A DNA stretch of 64,000 nucleotides from Dictyostelium discoideum. Lineage: Eukaryota. Where the stretch lies: the NCBI GenBank assembly GCA_000004695.1, contig CM000154.2, positions 2,752,001 to 2,816,000 on the forward strand, given 5' to 3'. Within the stretch, counting starts at the first letter, position 1, and every line of letters begins with the position of its first letter. The notes under the pieces were generated by a model. The model made no database searches and had not been told where the DNA came from. It saw only the letters and a list, made by a program, of their open reading frames with translations. Positions 3,696 through 31,652 of the stretch are shown piece by piece. Made by a program: the position numbers and the translations under genes.

Positions 3696-6600
3696 ATGAA
3701 TAAAAAATTTATTTTATTATTTATATTTTTATTATTTTCACTGATAAAAAGTGAAAATATCATAATTATAAATAATGAAACTTTTTTAAATCAAACAAAT
3801 TTAATTTTAAATTCATATTATTCACTAAATGATAATATTTTCAAAACTTCAATAATAAATAATGAATTAATATTCCAAGATTCAAGTATAACATTTTTAA
3901 ATCAACATGAAAAAACATCAATTTACAAAGAAGATTTATTAATTAAAAATGGAGAATATCAATTAAATGGTAAATCAACAATTCCAATAATTTTTATAAG
4001 TTTACAACAAATTTTAAATTCAATAAATCCAGTATTGGAATTATCAAATATTGAACCAATAACCAAAATTACAGCAATTGTAAATTCTTATGATGGTAAT
4101 GTGATTGTAGAAGGTTATGAAAGAATTCCAATTTTTTATAATGAATTACAAAATAAAGTTGAATTTTATCAATCAATTTCAGATATTATTGCTCATATGA
4201 TTATTGATTCAATTAAACCAAACCTTGTTTCAAAAAATAAAGATAGTTTATTTCAAAATTATGATTTAACAATTAACGATTGGGAAGAATCAATATCATT
4301 TTTAAAAGGTTTTAAGAATTTTTTTTCAATTTTAATTAAAAAGGTAATTAATCATTTAAAAAAAAAAAAAAAAAACTAAAATGATTATGGATAAATTATT
4401 AATTAATTTTTTTTTTTTTTTTTTTTCTATTTTGTTATTTCCCATACCTATAGATTGCATTCCCAAAATTATCAGATTCTGTAACTGAATCAATCTATAA
4501 TGATAAATCAAATTCATACATAAACATTAAACATATAAAGTACGTATAAAAATCTGATTTTTAATTTACAAAAAAAAAATATCTTTTCTCAACATAATAA
4601 CTTTTTTTTTCATTTTCGATTTTTCTATTTTTATTTTTTATTATTTTAATTTTTTTTTTTTTTTTTAATTTTTTTTATTTTTTTAATAGGCCAAAAAATA
4701 ATCCCACATTCTCTTCATTATCAATTTCATCAACATTGTTGGATTTATATCAAGGAAATGTTGATAAACAAAATAAACCAGTTTTCTTTGAAAAGATAAC
4801 ATTGTTGTCAATGATTACAAGTTTAAAAAATAAACAAGTTATCGATATTGAATCATTTTCAAAAGTATTATTAGAAAATAATAATTTAGAAATTGGTAAA
4901 TCAATTGAAAATATATTATTTTTAAATAAAATAATTTCAACTTGTTCACTAGTTAATTGTTCAACTAATACATCATCCTCTTCAAGATCAATAAAAGCAA
5001 TTTTAAATCCATCAACATTTAACAATACAATTTCACAATGTATTTATTATGATAAAACTAGAAATCAATATTATGATTTAACTCCATTAATGTTGTATGT
5101 ATTTATATATTTTTAAAATAGTATCAATAATAATAGGAATATTGAATAATATAATATTAATATTTTTATTATTAAATTATATATTATATTATTCAATATT
5201 ATTAGACCATCAAATCAATTTTATAATGTAACTAAAGCATCAGTTACAGGAGGTGCAGTTTTTTTTAATTTTTGTACGAAAATTACAAAATGTGATTCAA
5301 TTGCATCAACAACCAAACAATCAGTGGCTTGTCAATCAACCATTGAACTAGCTTCTCTTAATCTTGCACATACTACAACTTTTCCAACCACTGATGGTTT
5401 AACACTTGCATATACAGCACCTGCTACAGGTACTTGCTCACCTTCAAGAAAATTGTCATATGTTTTCGTATGTAATCTTGCTCAAGAAATGTTAGCTGAT
5501 GTCACTGTAACTGCCAATGCATGTACTTTTACTCTTACCATTCAAACAAAATATGCATGCAAGAATCAAGCAGTCTTTTATTTAAATGGAGATCTTTATG
5601 ATTTAAGACCATTACAATTGTAAGTTTACACCCCTTTTTTTTTATGATCATAATAAATTATTAATAAAATCTTTATATTATTAGAACATATCCAAAACAA
5701 TTTCAAGTTAGATTAACACCATGGAATTATCCAGCAGGAGTAATTAGATATGTTTATTTCAATATTTTTGCAAAATCTAAAATGTGTGAAAATACAACAA
5801 CTGGATCAAATCATGCATGCTATATCGATAGTACAAATAGTGGAGTGATTGTTCCAATGAAGGAGCCAGTCTATACAATTGAAACTCAAGATTTAATTAA
5901 AATTCAATATTTTAGTACAGCCCCTTATTTTCCAAGTTGCCCAAATCCTGTATTGGAAATTAATATCAAATGTAATCCAACAGTTGATTATCAATTCCCA
6001 AGTTCAGTTTCTTATGAAGATATGTGTAGTTATCCAATTCTTATTATTGAATCAAGATATGCATGTCCAACAATGCGTTTCTTAAATGGTAAACAATTTT
6101 ATAGTTTAGAATCCTTACAAAAACAATCAACTAATCCATATCAAGTAGCATTTGGATCCAATTATAAATTACTTTTTAATTTTGGTGGTATTGTTGATAC
6201 ATGTGTACAAGCTATGCCAGCAACAAATCCAACAAAAAGAATTCAAGCTTGTCAAATTCATAATACCAATCAAACTGATGTTCGTATAATTGGTGTTGTT
6301 AATTTAGGTCCATTCGTTAAATTCTCTTACAATTCAATGACATTAGAGTATTTTACAGAAACATTAACAAGTGAATGTCCAACCAATGGCAATCGTAGAT
6401 CTATTAGATTAGTATTAACCTGTAATCCAACCACAGATTATTTAGTAACTAGTGTAGTCGAAAGTCCATTATGTGTCTTCCAAGTAAATATAGGCTCAAA
6501 GTATGCTTGTGATTCATTGATATTTTTCAATGGGTATAGTTTTACAGATTTAACACCATTGAAATCCCTCCAAAGATACACTGATATCAGTGGTGGTAAC

Positions 6601-15924: not shown

Positions 15925-16639
15925 TTTTTCTTAAAATGCCAAACCAATCTAACAATTTATAATTAAATAAATCTATTGATAGAAATTTTTTTTATTAATT
16001 ATCTAAAATATTGGTAGATTTATGTCCCAATTAAGTCTACAGCAAAAATTTATTTCTTTGTTAATTATTTTTATTTTCAAAATTCTTTTTATTGGATATT
16101 AACAAATTATTTTACAATCCAAGTATATTTTTTTTTTTTTTTTTTTTTTTTGTATTGATTAATTACAGTTTTTCAAGAAAAGGAAAATAATAAATAATTA
16201 TAATTTTTTTTTTTTTTTAAATATTAATTTATTATATGCTGAATCTTTAAGCAATAATAGTTTTTTTTTTAGTTTATATTTTGTTTTAAAATTTATATTT
16301 ATATGAATTGAATCAACAATTACTCTATTTGGTAGTATTGTGCTTGATAAACAATAATCTTTTATAATTTGGTTTTTAATATTTTTAATTTTTTTGATGT
16401 ATTCGATTTTTTAACAAATTGGGAGGGTATCTTTTGATGATGCTAATTTATAATTTTTAACTTTATTTATATAATCCAAGGTCGCTGATTCATACCATTT
16501 TTAAGAATTATATCATTGTATAATGTTTTGGCTTGGATTTGGTTGTCGTTGTGGAGTTTGTCCTAGGTGTGCAAGTCAATCTATTTACCACTAATTTTTG
16601 CATATCTATATGTGTATTATAATTTACAATTTTAAAAAT

Positions 16640-16712
16640 GCCCAGATAGCTCAGTCGGTAGAGCGCAAGGCTTTTAACCTTGTGGTCGGGGGTTCGAGCC
16701 CCCCTTTGGGCG
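16640..16712 (+). tRNA. tRNA-Lys (anticodon UUU), 73 nt, no encoded CCA
   Basis: The sequence forms a cloverleaf. The acceptor stem GCCCAGA pairs with TTTGGGC (one G-U pair). The D-arm is GCTC-AGTCGGTA-GAGC. The anticodon stem CAAGG/CCTTG encloses the loop CTTTTAA (anticodon TTT). The T-arm is GGGGG-TTCGAGC-CCCCC, followed by a discriminator G. Confidence 0.9.
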
Positions 16713-16832
16713 AAATTTTTAAATTAATATCGTTGATCGAGGGTTCAACTCCCAGTTTAATGTAATGCCAATATTGATCATAATAAATAAAGGAACACAC
16801 AATTAATATTATATGAATGCTGTAAAGCGTGA

Positions 16833-18547
16833 ATCAAAACTAACTTTATTTTTTTTCATTTTTTTCAGTTTTTATAATTTTCGAGTTTTCGTTATTTTCG
16901 ACCTAGAAGTTTCGAACGAAAACTCTAAAATATATAAAAACTAAATAAATTAATTATTATTTTAATTATTATTGTTTAATTGTTAATCATTATTATTATT
17001 ACTATTATTAATATTATGATTATTAAAAACTTATTAATATTAAACAATGTAATTCATTACATATCCCCCTTCTTGACAAGATCGGGAAAAATGAAATGAG
17101 AATATTAATTGTGGATGATTAATTATTATATCAATTGGCTTATATTAAATTTTGATTGATTTTTTTTTTTTTTTTTTTTAATTTGATTTGATTTGATTTG
17201 ATTTGATTTGATTTGATTTGATTTGATTTGATTTGATTTGATTTGATTTTTTTTTGATTTCCAAAGATGCAGACCTTGAAAATTTCTTGAAATTGTTAAA
17301 TAACAAAACTGTCACTACGACTTGAACAACTCTATTACCTAAATTTCTTGCATGGATTCGCAACACTGAATCTAATGACTGGAACTTCAATTCACTATTA
17401 CTATCACTTCTTAACTATCTTTTACTATTTCAGGATGGACTATCATAAGCGTGAGATTTTCACTTTAACCATTACAACTATATATATAATCGACATTGTT
17501 TATACATATCAGTAAACCAAACTTTACTTTCCTCTTCTACTACTACCACTACTACTACTATTACTTCTGGACGGACTATCGTTTAGCGTGAGATTTATCA
17601 CTTCAACCATTACAACTATATATATATAATCAACATTGTTTATACATATTAGTAAACCAAACTTTATACTACTTCTACTATTACTATTATTACTACTTCT
17701 AATGAACACCACGATGGATACCAGTTCATTATGTTTGCAACTTTAAAATCATTATAATAAGATTCAACATTGAATATCTTAATACGACTACTTAAGGAGA
17801 CTTTCGCATTACTATTATTTCTACTAGTGATACGCAAACATAGACATCTATTTGCGCTCTGCAGTGATAACCGACACCGCCACTTAGTATTGTAATAAAC
17901 CTTTATATCCATGAATTCTATTAATCTATGGTGATGGTTTGCACATCATACTATCGTGGTTTTATTATAACTCTTTTGATGTATGATTTAGTTTAAATAT
18001 TGTTTACACACATTGTCAACAAGTATTAACCTAACATCTATTGCTATTTTTTTTTTTTTTTTTATGATTATTAAATTTTAAAACTATATCTTGTTTAACA
18101 ATTATTTTAAATGACATAATTTTATTTGTTTGCGAATTATGAATTCATATTCATAATTTCATCCCCTCATTAAAATTTATGACGATCAGCCAACCATTAA
18201 AACGAGCAGGTACTGATTAAATAATTATATCAAAGGATAGATAGTGATACAATTAAATAATTTGAGTAATGATGATACTTTACGAAAGAAAAAAAATAAT
18301 AATGGTAATTTTCTTTTTTTTTTTTTTTTTTAACAAGCAAATATTAACTATGATATCTATTATGTATGGGCATACTCTTAGAATAATAATGATTAACAAT
18401 TAAACAATAATAATTAAAATAATAATTAATTTATTTAGTTTTTAATATTTTAGAGTTTTCGTTCGAAACTTTTAGGTCCAAAATAACGAAAACTCGAAAA
18501 TTATAAAAACTGAAAAAAATGAAAAAAAATAAAGTTAGTTTTGATTT
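16833..18547. mobile_element. Non-autonomous element of ~1.7 kb bounded by near-perfect ~165-bp terminal inverted repeats (16833-16998 and 18381-18547), located ~120 bp downstream of tRNA-Lys. It has no intact ORF.
   Basis: The reverse complement of 18381-18547 matches 16833-16998 almost base for base (…TCAAAACTAACTTTATTTTTTTTCATTTTTTTCAGTTTTTATAATTTTCGAGTTTTCGTTATTTTCGACCTAGAAGTTTCGAACGAAAACTCTAAAATAT…). The interior holds an (ATTTG)n microsatellite, a ~130-bp direct tandem duplication (17430-17700) and a GC-richer segment. No target-site duplication is obvious. Confidence 0.45.
17180..17250. repeat. (ATTTG)n pentanucleotide microsatellite (~13 units) inside the TIR element
   Basis: Direct reading of the sequence. 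Confidence 0.9.
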
Positions 18548-18589
18548 ATTCTTATATCTTATTTTTATTAATTTAATTCCTATATTTTT

Positions 18590-19260
18590 TAAAATAATAA
18601 AAAGTTTCATTTAATATATATATATTTTTTTTTTTATAAAATTTATTATTTTTTATCTTATTTTTTAGGGATTACTTATATTTTAATAAAATATGTTGAA
18701 TATTATAAAATTTTCCAATTTATAATTTCTTTTATTATTTTTTAAACATCTTATTTTTAAAACCTTAATTAAAAAAATTTATAACCTTCTTATATATTAT
18801 CTCATTTTTTTAGTATTTAATATAATAATAAAATATGTTAAAAATTATCTTATGTTTCAATTTTTAATATATTTTATTATTTTTTTATTATTATTATTTA
18901 TCTTATTTTTTAATATATTTTATTAAAAAATAATAAAGGTTTCATTTTTTCTAAATAATCTTATTTTTTTATATCCTATTTTCTAATAATTATTTTAATT
19001 ATTTTTAAAAAAAAAATAACCCCGAATTAAAAAAATTTAAAAATTCTAATATATTTTCTTATTTTTTAGTATTAATTAAATTTTAATAAAAAATGCTATT
19101 TTTTTTTTTATAATAAGTTTCATTTTTTTATAAATTTTATAAATATTATTTTTTTTATTTTTTTGTTATTATTAATCTTATTTTTTAATAATTTTTATTA
19201 ATTTATAAAATAGCATTACAAACTTTTATTAAAATTTAATTTAATTAATTATATTTTAAC
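18590..19260. repeat. Degenerate AT-rich tandem repeat array with recurring motifs (CTTATTTTTTA, AAGTTTCATTT, TAATAAAATATGTT)
   Basis: The same motif set recurs with a period of roughly 120-150 bp across the region. Confidence 0.3.
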
Positions 19261-19369
19261 ATTTTACTAGGTTTTTTTTTTCTGGTGAAAATAAAAAAAG
19301 ATTTAGAAAAAAGTTTGGACAAAAAAGATGTTTTAATCAAAAGTAATAATACAATTCAGAATTCGAAAC

Positions 19370-19400
<31 letters not shown>

Positions 19401-19755
19401 CTAACCCCTCTTTTAGAGACCCTGTAAAAAAAAAAAAAAAAAAAAAAACTAAAAATAAAATGAGATCTAGCATCTCAAGGAGAAGCAACTAATAATTGAG
19501 TTATCCAATTCAAAAAAAAAATATGCAAATATAAGATAATAAAAAAATGAATTGAATTTCTAATCTTAATCTAAAAAAAATACAAAATATAAACTTAATT
19601 TTTTTTCAAAAAAACCAATTTTTAGATTAAAAAATTTAAACTATAATCATTCACATTATTACAAAAAAAGTGTAAACAAATTCACATAATAATTGGAATA
19701 ATGCAAAAAACTTTTTTTTTTAATTATTAATAAAAAAAAATAAAGTACTTTATTT

Positions 19756-20199
19756 TTATAGAATCAAGGAAATAATAAAGAAGACAAAGGCAGAGAACAA
19801 AACCATTGGCTTTAAAGAGTTTGATGAGCTAGCTCCGTCAATTGGAGGATCAGCATAAACTGAAAATTCAACACCACTTATTGTGTAAGGATTACATATT
19901 CCGATGTAAGCTGTTTTAGATGTAAGAGTAGCCATACCACAACCAATTGAGGCAGATACGATATATGAAGAATTTAAAGAATTGATGTTTGGACTGACGG
20001 TAATGTATGGGAGGGCATAGTTACAAGTTGCTTCTTTTGATAAAACTGTACATTGATTAACATTGATGGAAATATCTGTATATTCAGGATTGGAGCAACT
20101 TCTACCGCAAAAGATTCTTGCATTGATATGTTGGACTGTGATAGCACTTGAAAGACCCAAAATAGAAATTAAAATTAAAAGAATTGCTAAAAATTTCAT
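19756..20199 (-). CDS. Small (147 aa) secreted Cys-containing protein with a signal peptide and a C-terminal hydrophobic GPI-anchor-like tail. It is possibly ponticulin-like.
   Basis: The protein starts MKFLAILLILISILGLSSA and ends ...SNSLKPMVLFSAFVFFIISLIL. It has 6 Cys residues. This architecture is typical of Dictyostelium GPI-anchored ponticulin-like proteins. Confidence 0.45.
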   Translation of the reverse strand: MKFLAILLILISILGLSSAITVQHINARIFCGRSCSNPEYTDISINVNQCTVLSKEATCNYALPYITVSPNINSLNSSYIVSASIGCGMATLTSKTAYIGICNPYTISGVEFSVYADPPIDGASSSNSLKPMVLFSAFVFFIISLIL

Positions 20200-26215: not shown

Positions 26216-26817
26216 TTGTTTTTCTAACTGTTCAATAGCGTATGAAAGAAAATAAGGAAAGTGAATTTTAAAAAAAAATTTGAATTAAAAATAAAAAAAA
26301 ATATAAAATAAAATAAAATAAAAAAATATTAAATAAAAAATAAATAAAATAAAAAATTTAATTTGATAAAAATAGAATTTCAAAATATTATTTATTTTTA
26401 ATTAAATTATTTATTTTTTTTTAATTAATTTTTTCTTATTTTGTTTAGTTCATCATTCAAGATCAGTTTCAAATCCAGTTTTTAAACTATCCTTTTGGTA
26501 TTACTATATCGTGTGATAAAATTATAAATAAATTAATATATTTTAAAAAAAAAGAAATAAATTAAAAAAACTTCAAGTGGAATTTACTATTTTTTTAAAT
26601 TACCAATAAAAATAATACCATCCCTAGTGTGTATTTTCATAGTTTTGGAATTTAATTTAAATAAATTTTTATTTTTTTTTTATTTTTTTTATTTTTTTTA
26701 TTTTTTATTTTAATTTAACTTGTTTGACTTCAAATTTAATTTTTCAATTTTTTTTTTATTTATTTTATTTTTTTTTTATTTTTTTTTTTTTTCATTTATT
26801 TTTTTTTTTTTTTTTCA

Positions 26818-27470
26818 ATGATAAACTGTTGTAGAATTGGTTCAAGGTTATTTAACACAAAAAATAAAATAATCCTTGGAACTTCTTTTAATAAATCAAT
26901 ATTAATTCCAACTATAAATAATAATAGTTATAATAATAAATTTATTTTTAATATTAAAAGAGATTATACAGTAAATAATAAAATGTCAGAAAGTGGTGCA
27001 AAAGCAGGCGCCACTGAAGAAAATGTAAGTATATAAATCTACATTTTTAATATAGATATTTTATGATATTAATATCATATTCCATTTCTTATTATTAATT
27101 ATAAAAGAATAGAATTGACCCAAAGGACACACTATTTGCAAAATTTGTTTCAGGTCAAATCCAAGTACCAAAAGTTTACGAGGATGAATATTGTATTGCA
27201 ATCAATGATATTAACCCACAAGCACCAGTACATATTTTAGTTATCCCAAAACTTGCCGTTGGTGGTGTTAGTGATGTTGCCAATGTTGATCTTGAAAAAT
27301 ACAAAGAAGCCATGGGTCATATCATGTCAAAAATTCATCATATCGCTTCTCTTAAAGGTGCTGATTCTTACAGATTGGTCATTAATGATGGTGTTTTAGG
27401 TCAACAATCTGTTAGATGGTTACATATTCATATCCTTGGTGGTAGACAAATGAATTGGCCACCAGGCTAA
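26818..27470 (+). CDS. HINT (histidine triad nucleotide-binding) protein, copy 1. Exons are 26818-27024 and 27108-27470. A possible alternative start at 26983 gives MSESGAKAG….
   Basis: The HIT signature HLHIHILGGRQMNWPPG and the block FAKFVSGQIQVPKVYEDEYCIAINDINPQAPVHILVIPK are present. The donor is AAT|GTAAGT and the acceptor is TAAAAG|. The N-terminal 55 aa (MINCCRIGSRLF…) could be a targeting extension. Confidence 0.8.
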
Positions 27471-27633
27471 TTTCAATTTTCAAAGAAAAAAATAAAAAAA
27501 AAAAAATAAAAAAAAAAAAGGAATATAAAGTATTGCCAACTGAAATGAACACAAATTAAAACCATTAATAAACATAATTTTATTTTAATAAATCACACTA
27601 ATTAAATGACTTTTGCAATTCAAAATTTACCTT

Positions 27634-30338: not shown

Positions 30339-31055
30339 GTAATAATTCTATTCTTGCTCCTAATTTAATCAAATTTTTTATTTCTTTGTCATGATTTATT
30401 ATATTTTCTTCTGTGTCATTCTTTTCTATTTTTGTTTTTTCTAACTGTTGTTTTAACTCTGATTCTGTATATTCACTCATTGATAGTATCACTTTTTTTC
30501 AAAAATTATGAGAGAAATGAGGTGAAATCACAAATTTGTAATTTGTTAAATTAAAAAAATAAAATTAAATCTCAAAATAAAAAAAAAAATTTATGAAGCA
30601 GAGTGAGGAAATATTAAAATGGGTCAGGATCTTGGGTGTTTTTATATGGTAAAAAAAAAAAAAACCACTTTTTTTAATTTTAAAAAATTAATTTGTAAAT
30701 TGAAAAAATTCCTCACTCTTCGGGTTAATAAATAAAAAAAAAAATTAAAATTAATAAATAAAAAAAAATTAAAATTAATTTTAATTTGGCAAATTACAAA
30801 TTTAATTTTTCAATTTTTTTTTTTTTTTAAATCTTTTTTTTTTTTAAACCTTTTTTTTTTAAACCTTTTTTTTTTATTTTTTTTCATTTATTTTTTAAAT
30901 ATTTTTTTTTAATTATAAACTGTTGTAGAATTGGTTCAAGATTATTTAACACAAAAAATAAAATAATCCTTGCAACTTCATTTAATAAACCAATATTATT
31001 TCCAACTATAAATAATAATAATTTCATTTTTAATATTAAAAGAGATTATACAGTA

Positions 31056-31088
<33 letters not shown>

Positions 31089-31089
<1 letters not shown>

Positions 31090-31551
31090 TGTCAGAAAGT
31101 GTAGGGAATGTAAGTATATAAATCTACATTTTTAATAAATTTATATTTATTAATACCATATTCCTTTTCTTATTATTAAATATAAAAGATAAGAATTGAC
31201 CCAAGGGATACAATATTTGCAAAAATTATTTCTGGTGCAATCCCATCAAAAAAATTTTACGATGATGAATATTGTATTGCAATCGAAGATATTAACCCAC
31301 AAGCACCAGTACATCTTTTAGTTATTCCAAAACTTGCCGTTGGTGGTCTTAGTGATGTCGCCAATGTTGACCTTGAAAAATACAAAGAATCTATGGGTCA
31401 TATCATGTCAAAAATTCATCATATCGCTTCTCTTAAAGGTGCTGATTCTTACAGATTGGTCATTAATGAAGGTGTTTTAGGTCAACAATCTGTTAGATGG
31501 TTACATATTCATATCCTTGGTGGTAGACAAATGAATTGGCCACCAGGCTAA
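31089..31551 (+). CDS. HINT protein, copy 2 (tandem paralog). Exons are 31089-31109 and 31189-31551.
   Basis: It encodes MSESVGN|IRIDPRDTIFAKIISGAIPSKKFYDDEYCIAIEDINPQAPVHLLVIPK…HIHILGGRQMNWPPG. The donor is AAT|GTAAGT and the acceptor is TAAAAG|. The upstream sequence is co-linear with copy 1 but lacks the upstream ATG. Confidence 0.8.
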
Positions 31552-31652
31552 TTTCAATTAAAGAATTCTTCATTGTACCTATTTAAACCTTTTACTAATA
31601 ATAGTAAAGAAAATTCACCATTGGCACGTACATAATAAAAAAATATATCCTT

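Follow-up and report, generated by a model that had tools for sequence, protein, structure and literature searches.

A 1715-bp unit of inserted non-coding DNA, bounded by two inverted arms that lie 1384 bp apart, stands beside a tRNA-Lys gene in a window of 64,000 nucleotides of AX4-type Dictyostelium discoideum DNA (the window being, throughout, the whole stretch analysed). The inserted DNA is real; no evidence points to targeting of tRNA genes or to movement as one unit. Three origins are about equally likely, and a DNA element of the terminal inverted repeat (TIR) or foldback type stands slightly ahead: with a probability of roughly 0.35, the unit is mobile-element-type DNA, a non-autonomous class II element of the long-TIR/foldback kind with a cargo interior that includes a repeat fragment. 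New here, as read from alignment with relatives, is the lineage-specific presence of the unit together with the inversion of the tRNA gene and ~3.1 kb of AX-specific DNA. The tRNA gene and the arms are made up as follows.

16639-16713, plus strand: tRNA-Lys(UUU) gene (ARAGORN; Rfam tRNA, 72.6 bits).
16742-16752, plus strand: external B-box-like motif GGTTCAACTCC, 3' of tRNA-Lys, kept in the L006 and L007 alignments.
16832-16997, plus strand: left arm of the inverted repeat, 166 nt, 18% GC, 163/166 matching the right arm.
18382-18546, minus strand: right arm, 165 nt, from self-comparison with the left arm.
16867-16942, no strand assigned: hairpin-forming palindrome of the left arm, ~76 nt, stem ~28 bp, z -5.2.
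18437-18511, no strand assigned: twin hairpin of the right arm, ~76 nt, z -4.5.

The first-pass annotation had described a tRNA-Lys gene followed ~120 bp downstream by an ORF-less 1.7-kb unit bounded by TIRs, and this arrangement was recovered with ARAGORN, Rfam and BLAST, the left arm beginning 118 nt past the end of the gene. Its ~165-bp TIRs, called perfect there, are near-perfect: two mismatches and one 1-nt indel leave 98.2% identity (BLAST E = 1e-77). The window holds exactly two occurrences of a 16-nt core of the arm, with 0.01 expected, and identity between the arms stops sharply at their ends. Just inside them a weak inverted match pairs 17008-17029 with 18327-18348 (P ~0.014). The only strong hairpins of the whole element are the two listed, one per arm, that of the left arm having a perfect 11-bp core (GAGTTTTCGTT/AACGAAAACTC); the first-pass annotation does not mention them. 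The terminal bases, AATCAAAAC..., are not known to resemble any superfamily terminus. Whatever the origin of the unit, the arms are predicted to be able to form a stem of 166 bp with each other, which in DNA would be a cruciform and, on read-through, a double-stranded RNA. They would also offer a substrate for inversion of the 1.4-kb interior.

Orthologous sites were compared in two wild D. discoideum isolates, D. cf. discoideum and D. citrinum (L005-L008). The unit is missing from the orthologous intergenic site in all four, and so is the ~3.1 kb of AX-specific DNA around it; the orthologous interval measures 0.75 kb in L006 (longer in the other relatives) against 3.8 kb here. Since the region is empty in four of four relatives, the unit is inserted DNA, in agreement with the earlier suggestion of a mobile element. 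An independent AX-type assembly contains the identical structure (chromosome 5, ~2.83 Mb), so that it is no assembly artefact. Two further stretches of lineage-specific DNA were delimited.

16129-16597, minus strand: AX-lineage-specific DNA upstream of the tRNA gene, with a T-run (16128-16151) at its low-coordinate end.
18547-19339, no strand assigned: AX-lineage-specific block from the right arm to conserved sequence, 8-10% GC, with a recurring ATCTTATTTTTTA motif.

AX-specific DNA extends past the left arm by 77 nt and past the right arm by 790 nt, so that the arm ends are not demonstrably insertion boundaries. Within the upstream stretch, the 36-40 nt nearest the tRNA gene (16558-16597) are matched by the 5' end of a D. 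cf. discoideum repeat. That repeat sits ~50-60 bp upstream of tRNA genes; as a tRNA-like sequence it was recognised by neither ARAGORN nor Rfam.

The tRNA-Lys gene lies on the opposite strand in all four relatives, as judged from flank orthology and alignments, and has been inverted in place here. Targeting of tRNA genes, which the first-pass annotation had raised from the downstream position, is therefore not inferable: with the gene flipped and ~3.1 kb of extra DNA on both sides of it, the present geometry (downstream, ~120 bp) is, by comparison with the relatives, a lineage-specific product of rearrangement and added DNA. The TRE3-like downstream position arose within a rearranged, insertion-rich flank and is not readable as targeting. 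Orthology between the 77 nt separating the external B box from the left arm and the downstream spacer of L006 and L007 was not significant, and a breakpoint of the inversion coinciding with the arm end is accordingly unsupported. In this intergenic region close relatives differ by at least two other small inversions, one of the tRNA block (AX lineage) and one of block 19340-19675 (L007).

Under the TIR/foldback reading, the unit would have entered the tRNA-Lys flank in the NC4/AX laboratory lineage of D. discoideum with the 166-bp arms as its termini; the interior would be non-functional cargo, with the 141-bp unit described below being a piece of some other dispersed repeat; movement would have depended on a transposase that acts in trans and recognises the arms, as the unit would be unable to move by itself; and proximity to a tRNA gene would reflect insertion-tolerant flanks rather than specific targeting. 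This reading is favoured by arms matching at 163/166, their sharp ends, the inner inverted match, the internal hairpins, the want of coding capacity, the empty sites of the relatives, the identical structure in the second AX-type assembly and the long TIRs known from D. discoideum DNA transposons. Against it stand the missing flanking duplication, although arms so similar imply a young event, the missing second copy (searched for in the window and ~150 kb of related loci), the terminal bases, the AX-specific DNA past both arms and the direct repeat around the left arm alone described below. The earlier proposal of a non-autonomous MITE-like or foldback DNA element holds as to the TIRs, the lack of an ORF and the insertion; a duplication bounding the unit is missing, and the length is 1715 bp.

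Target-site duplications, which had been suggested as a mark to look for at the copy boundaries, do not flank the unit: directly outside it the sequences ...AAAGCGTG / TATTCTTAT... match at 2/9 positions, and local alignment scored no higher than shuffles. Duplications of a nested insertion, a 14-mer at 17014/18062 and an 11-mer at 17143/18069, were not significant (P ~0.13); that candidate insertion of ~0.9-1.0 kb would shrink the unit to ~0.7-0.8 kb. No second copy of the unit was found in ~210 kb of Dictyostelium DNA (the 64-kb window plus ~150 kb of related loci); nhmmer with seven pieces of the AX-specific DNA returned nothing from the compared relatives' loci or the rest of the window; and metagenome and prokaryote-genome contigs gave 0 hits to two arm sequences, a 43-mer and a 23-mer, and to a 30-mer from the 141-bp unit. 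One direct repeat was found around the left arm.

16802-16812 and 17007-17017, plus strand: 11-bp direct repeat ATTAATATTAT, bracketing the left arm alone (empirical P ~0.008).

This pair is, on sequence grounds, a possible if marginal target-site duplication of a separate ~194-bp insertion, and a separate insertion fits it better than a TIR unit does. It is possible, as a tentative reading, that a short hairpin-bearing repeat (~170-195 bp) inserted twice, separately and in opposite orientations 1.4 kb apart, the 1.7-kb "element" then being no unit; the repeat would be either a small element without autonomy or what is left of the 3' end of a retroelement that terminates in (ATT)n-type sequence, and the interior would be intervening DNA. 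The 11-bp repeat encloses, besides the left arm, 19 relatively GC-rich nt outside it and 9 nt of ATT type inside; its site, 89-99 bp downstream of tRNA-Lys, lies within the 40-150 bp window of TRE3, and the arm would then be oriented like the tRNA gene, as TRE3 is (PMC5911963). On either side of the right arm stand TACTCTTAG and TATTCTTAT, which match at 7/9 positions, no duplication surrounds the whole unit, and the flip of the tRNA gene in this lineage could explain why orientation-specific insertions face opposite ways. The right-arm match is, however, not significant by local alignment; the 11-mer is AT-only, lies in an ATT-rich tract and was found after several tests; the same left-inner sequence is the one that weakly matches, inverted, the inner flank of the right arm (17008-17029 and 18327-18348); the right arm is ~1.7 kb from the tRNA gene, beyond any known targeting window; and the arms have no oligo(A) tail. 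[quoted passage not shown] A short tRNA-targeting element of this kind, if true, would be the first SINE- or MITE-sized one in dictyostelids and would come with a datable in-place tRNA inversion.

The sharp arm boundaries and the lack of a target-site duplication, with a single locus in the ~210 kb searched, are also what an inverted duplication in place would leave. Palindromes promote breakage and template switching, and each arm contains a strong one. Somewhat doubtful but not far-fetched, this account has a retroelement-derived insert, e.g., an ORF-less deletion derivative of TRE3 type in tRNA orientation ending in (ATCAA)n A20, partly inverted, with a 166-bp stretch copied to the other end of the segment by a staggered break or by template-switch repair at that hairpin-prone stretch. 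The at least two other small inversions of the region agree with it, and flipping the interior back yields one plus-strand element, 100-119 bp downstream, in tRNA orientation and with an A-rich tail, which is the geometry of TRE3 (PMC5911963). Its weak points are that the interior has no orthologue in any relative, which makes the ancestral orientation uncheckable; that the 11-bp repeat, if real, should not survive beside the left arm under a simple staggered break; and that an (ATCAA)n tail differs from the oligo(A) described for TREs (PMC5006619).

The interior contains repeats and two gene models.

17160-17249, plus strand: T20 followed by (TTTGA)14.6, the array itself at 17177-17249; on the minus strand (TCAAA)n followed by A20.
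17250-18040, minus strand: internal "complex" stretch, with a GC content of 0.26-0.33 (flanks, 0.08-0.18).
17395-17697, minus strand: two diverged tandem copies of a ~141-bp unit (17395-17559 and 17537-17697), 82% identical.

The (ATTTG)n array of the first-pass annotation is the (TTTGA)14.6 array that follows T20. The internal tandem duplication also exists, with a period of ~141 bp in place of the 130 bp given for it and an identity of 82%. The longest ORF in the unit has 82 aa. Two annotation pipelines placed models on the minus strand of the complex stretch, DDB_G0289425 (171 aa) and ACTFIT_001048 (152 aa), and apart from one another these have relatives only in an 88-aa AX4 model and in translated microsatellites. 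phmmer with DDB_G0289425 against 1.84 billion representatives found microsatellite translations only; the 152-aa model matched nothing beyond its own locus and a single model on chromosome 1. The minus-strand translation of the 141-bp unit recurs once, in the AX4 chromosome 1 gene model DDB_G0268912. Searching with the chromosome 1 model turned up another repeat family, in D. cf. discoideum. Pfam gave no hit past threshold on the element; a hit to MATH (E = 0.028) was taken as noise, comparable hits being obtained for two control proteins. Rfam found no family besides tRNA. Both models should be treated as spurious, whichever origin holds, and the absence of an ORF noted earlier is borne out as the absence of a credible one, the annotated models being orphans. 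AX4 gene models were called here, which suggests that masking of known repeats had left the region untouched.

The hairpins of the arms (~76 nt, z near -5), with a T-rich tract followed by G before the interior that resembles pri-miRNA start sites (PMC6161686), bring up a functional hairpin-RNA locus, a source of miRNA or siRNA type, or a palindrome with a regulatory role, for instance a heat-shock element, the left-arm CTAGAAGTTTCGAA agreeing at 13/14 positions with the classical heat-shock consensus. Any such function is very unlikely. None of the 33 published D. discoideum miRNA 5p/3p sequences occurs in 16000-19800 at up to 3 mismatches, no listed miRNA locus lies near this part of chromosome 5, and the locus, missing from all four relatives, is not conserved and has no Rfam match. 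The heat-shock element was rejected: the window holds 2 matches against 1.8 expected, and the right arm carries a mutated form of the motif.

Retrotransposons that persist in a compact genome by inserting beside tRNA genes have their textbook case in D. discoideum, and no DNA-type or miniature element is known to land in this way. If the arms belong to a multicopy family associated with tRNA genes, they would represent a new class of passenger on the RNA polymerase III landing pad; a multicopy family would also add a repeat to the D. discoideum catalogue, which reportedly dates from Gloeckner et al. in 2001. If single-copy, they would provide a clean natural example of tRNA flanks gathering insertions and small inversions, an in-place tRNA flip included. 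Such changes of the flank occur within what is provisionally one species.

[quoted passage not shown] The distance fits (arm at 118 nt, candidate site at 89-99 nt), with the tRNA orientation here being derived. TRE3 has two ORFs, with APE, RT and zinc-finger regions in ORF2, an oligo(A) 3' end and a flanking duplication; the unit has a longest ORF of 82 aa, no Pfam domain or protein relatives, neither the tail nor the duplication, and a T20/(TTTGA)n that is internal, not terminal. TREs are without inverted ends, whereas the unit has inverted arms. It is, as the first-pass annotation held, not a TRE3 as such: Pfam shows no APE/RT ORFs, and there is no oligo(A) end. An ORF-less deletion derivative is known for TRE5-A, namely TRE5-A.2 (PMC5391098).

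With 166-nt arms that are 98.2% identical, the unit has the TIRs of class II elements. [quoted passage not shown] These Ginger2 elements, likened to the unit by description of the arms alone, share the long TIRs, move by cut-and-paste and are expected to have non-autonomous derivatives; they differ in their 3.8 kb, integrase-like transposase and 5-bp target duplications, the unit having neither ORF nor duplication. The small or unclassified D. discoideum DNA elements thug-S, thug-T and DDT, which the first-pass annotation had put forward for comparison, are likened by description only; the transposases of D. discoideum DNA transposons, those of thug and DDT included, have no significant similarity to known transposases (PMC5633606). 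thug-S carries the multicopy hairpin miRNA_can_D3, of six loci (PMC4894637); it is missing from both strands of the window at up to 3 mismatches, and its listed chromosome 5 copies lie at 0.43 and 4.80 Mb, against ~2.83 Mb here. MITEs are non-coding, below ~800 bp, of high copy number, with TIRs and a flanking duplication; the unit is likewise non-coding with TIRs, and differs in its 1715 bp and missing duplication.

DIRS-1, a tyrosine-recombinase element of 4.8 kb with ITRs of ~330 bp, three ORFs, an internal complementary region and a centromeric preference, is expected to make no target duplication. Inverted terminal repeats are described for this element of D. discoideum (PMC5633606). The unit shares its inverted ends and has no internal copy of the arm ends, no ORFs and no RT/YR domains. 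The foldback element Galileo belongs to the P superfamily, is multicopy and makes 7-bp duplications. In Drosophila buzzatii it reportedly has long structured inverted ends and frequent non-coding copies and is associated with small chromosomal inversions (PMC3573991). Long, internally structured inverted ends are what the unit has in common with Galileo.

The 1715-bp element at 16832-18546 of the window (23% GC) is inserted, non-coding, lineage-specific DNA in the flank of a tRNA-Lys(UUU) gene, a flank that is also inverted. An inverted-repeat unit beside tRNA-Lys had been described in the first-pass annotation; ARAGORN, Rfam, and the alignment of the two arms confirm it as real and correctly located. 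AX denotes the NC4/AX laboratory-strain lineage of D. discoideum; the proteins encoded in the window identify it as AX4-type DNA.

16129-16597, AX-specific DNA upstream of the tRNA gene
16639-16713, + strand, tRNA-Lys(UUU) gene (ARAGORN and Rfam in agreement)
16742-16752, external B-box-like GGTTCAACTCC, 3' of tRNA-Lys (from sequence)
16761-19339, AX-specific DNA downstream of the tRNA gene
16832-16997, left arm of the inverted repeat, starting 118 nt past the tRNA end
17160-17249, T20 followed by (TTTGA)14.6
17250-18040, interior stretch of 26-33% GC vs 8-18% GC in its flanks
17395-17697, diverged tandem duplication (two copies, 82% identity, period about 141 bp)
18382-18546, right arm of the inverted repeat, separated from the left arm by 1384 bp

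The arms are equal at 163 of 166 positions; two mismatches and a single-base indel account for the rest (BLAST E = 1e-77), and the inverted repeats are thus near-perfect, not perfect as first described. Within the 64 kb, a 16-nt arm core has two exact occurrences (0.01 expected). Each arm contains a ~76-nt palindrome whose folding is far above that of shuffled sequence (z of -5.2 and -4.5), and these two are the element's only strong hairpins. The (ATTTG)n array reported earlier is present in the interior, as (TTTGA)14.6; so is the internal tandem duplication, with the 141-bp period in place of the proposed 130 bp.

The element is effectively non-coding. Its longest ORF is 82 aa, and Pfam returned sub-threshold noise only; no credible ORF is present, in agreement with the earlier description. 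AX4 gene model DDB_G0289425 (171 aa), whose N-terminus corresponds to a minus-strand ORF at 17664-17912, is annotated on the minus strand inside the element, as is ACTFIT_001048 (152 aa; exon structure reconstructed) in a newer assembly; the Pescadillo homologue nearby is DDB_G0289415. The translated (TTTGA)n array makes up part of both models (17178-17912, minus strand). In a search of 5.8 billion proteins only these two and an 88-aa AX4 chromosome 1 model, DDB_G0268912, were matched, and HMMER over 1.84 billion representatives returned no further relatives except translations of (TTTGA)n arrays. All three models are apparently spurious, repeat DNA read as protein, and identification of the element as a gene is rejected. 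Rfam returned tRNA and no other family; none of 33 published D. discoideum miRNA sequences, including the thug-S-borne miRNA_can_D3, matched the element. Identity with thug-S is rejected by this single test, the absence of miRNA_can_D3.

The Holland et al. 2025 project (PMC12745789) supplied further assemblies, whose orthologous regions were retrieved via flanking proteins. One of these assemblies, labelled D. discoideum (L001, GCA_054883475.1), shares 99.8% identity with the window across 20.8 kb and differs over 16000-19800 only in the length of two homopolymer runs; judged by sequence identity it is an independent AX/NC4-type assembly, probably of strain AX2 of Holland et al. 2025, and its identical structure confirms that the element is no assembly artefact. 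Four more distant genomes were reached through the Pescadillo homologue: L005 (D. citrinum), L006 and L007 (labelled D. discoideum; presumably wild isolates provisionally kept within that species by PMC12745789; alignable intergenic DNA about 80-93% identical to the window), and L008 (D. cf. discoideum). In all four, tRNA-Lys(UUU) lies between the gene pair that flanks it in the window, a large one upstream and one of 147 aa downstream, and the arm, the 141-bp unit, and the 8-10% GC block are absent from the interval, which measures 0.75 kb in L006 vs 3.8 kb in the window. That the element is a functional hairpin-RNA or regulatory locus is very improbable: the locus is not conserved, known small RNAs do not match it, and a heat-shock-like arm motif is no commoner than chance.

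The flanking protein genes are collinear between the window and L005-L008, and relative to them tRNA-Lys is on the opposite strand in four of four. Its flanks (16598-16760; about 40 nt on the upstream side and, downstream, up to and including the external B box) are specifically similar to their L006 and L007 counterparts and not to those of a non-syntenic tRNA-Lys copy in L004 (D. cf. discoideum), so this is the orthologous gene; in the AX lineage, a segment made up of tRNA-Lys and about 40 nt to either side has flipped without leaving its site. An inversion breakpoint exactly at the arm end is unsupported, as the 77 nt from external B box to left arm are not demonstrable as ancestral downstream spacer. 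The tRNA-proximal 36-40 nt of the upstream AX-specific DNA (16558-16597; 42-81 bp from tRNA-Lys) match the 5' end of a D. cf. discoideum repeat located on the upstream side of tRNA-Ala and tRNA-Lys genes, at a distance of ~50-60 bp, a TRE5-like geometry. Members of this tRNA-upstream repeat family in D. cf. discoideum are:

L002, 7795-9720
L003, 7841-8526
L004, 7795-9885

The family opens with A-box- and B-box-like motifs (TAGTGCAGTGG ... GGTTCGATACC), but it gave no tRNA call by ARAGORN or Rfam; the 5'-end relic is all that remains of it beside tRNA-Lys in the window.

Beyond the right arm, an AX-specific block of 8-10% GC (18547-19339) carries the motif ATCTTATTTTTTA ~7 times at spacings of 50-120 bp, the first directly past the arm. 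Block 19340-19675, bounded by A and T runs, is inverted in L007 (reverse-complemented 5072-5288) and collinear in L006, which adds a second small inversion to this intergenic region. At 19396-19454, 30 nt (GTAAACTAACCCCTCTTTTAGAGACCCTGT) and A23 lie within an ancestral A-run, unbroken in L006, and look like an extremely 5'-truncated retroelement insertion. With the AX-specific DNA added, the intergenic region has thus piled up insertions and small inversions in a lineage-specific manner. Elsewhere in the window, two HIT/DcpS_C-domain gene copies (about 26773-27478 and 30866-31559; about 4 kb apart; 88% DNA identity) form a local gene duplication.

TRE3 elements lie 40-150 bp downstream of tRNA genes and are transcribed in the same direction as the tRNA (PMC5911963). 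The TRE3-like position first proposed (~120 bp downstream) holds in the present AX arrangement but not as targeting: the orientation of tRNA-Lys, hence which side is downstream, is itself derived in the AX lineage, and one instance, in a flank that has been rearranged, does not count as evidence that tRNA genes are targeted. Identity with TRE3 is rejected. With the interior flipped back, one + strand element results, with a start in the TRE3 window and an (ATCAA)n A20 end, as would suit an inverted duplication of the arms made while a retroelement-derived insert was rearranged; we consider this origin rather unlikely.

This origin, two separate insertions, and a long-TIR or foldback element fit about equally well, the last slightly ahead. 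Tentatively (probability about 0.35), the element would be a non-autonomous long-TIR or foldback-type DNA element, because equal-length, near-identical inverted ends are a hallmark of such elements. A target-site duplication, proposed earlier as a check at copy boundaries, is lacking around the 1715-bp unit: the 9 nt that adjoin it at either end agree at 2/9, and the 30-nt flanks align locally no better than shuffled ones. The left arm by itself lies between two copies of an 11-bp direct repeat, ATTAATATTAT (16802-16812 and 17007-17017); 19 nt, relatively rich in GC, separate the outer copy from the arm, and 9 nt of ATT-type sequence the inner one. This repeat is a marginal signal, one as long occurring in 0.8% of AT-rich window pairs sampled from available Dictyostelium DNA. 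Read as a duplication, it would turn the left arm into an insertion of its own, ~194 bp long, at a site 89-99 bp downstream of the tRNA, as fits the possible but doubtful origin of the arms as two insertions of one short hairpin-bearing repeat; the right arm flanks match at 7/9 only. A second marginal signal points the opposite way: a weak inverted match just inside the arms (17008-17029 vs 18327-18348; P about 0.014), as if the TIR ran on in degenerate form. For an insertion nested in the interior, the candidate duplications fall short of significance (P about 0.13).

Apart from each other, the arms match nothing in the window, in related loci totalling about 150 kb, or in metagenome and prokaryote collections. 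The C-terminal 44 residues of DDB_G0268912 are 80% identical to the minus-strand translation of the 141-bp unit, which to judge by this match is dispersed, with at least one further copy; the N-terminal part belongs to the tRNA-upstream repeat family of D. cf. discoideum. By both matches, the interior includes part of a repeat that occurs elsewhere alongside a tRNA-associated element. A multicopy, tRNA-associated family, if true, would raise the significance of the element, which is otherwise moderate to low. Among known systems, the DDT and thug families have transposases without significant similarity to known ones (PMC5633606). DNA transposons with TIRs of 260-297 bp are known in D. discoideum (PMC2836005); the element described here, with arms of 166 bp, likewise has long inverted ends.
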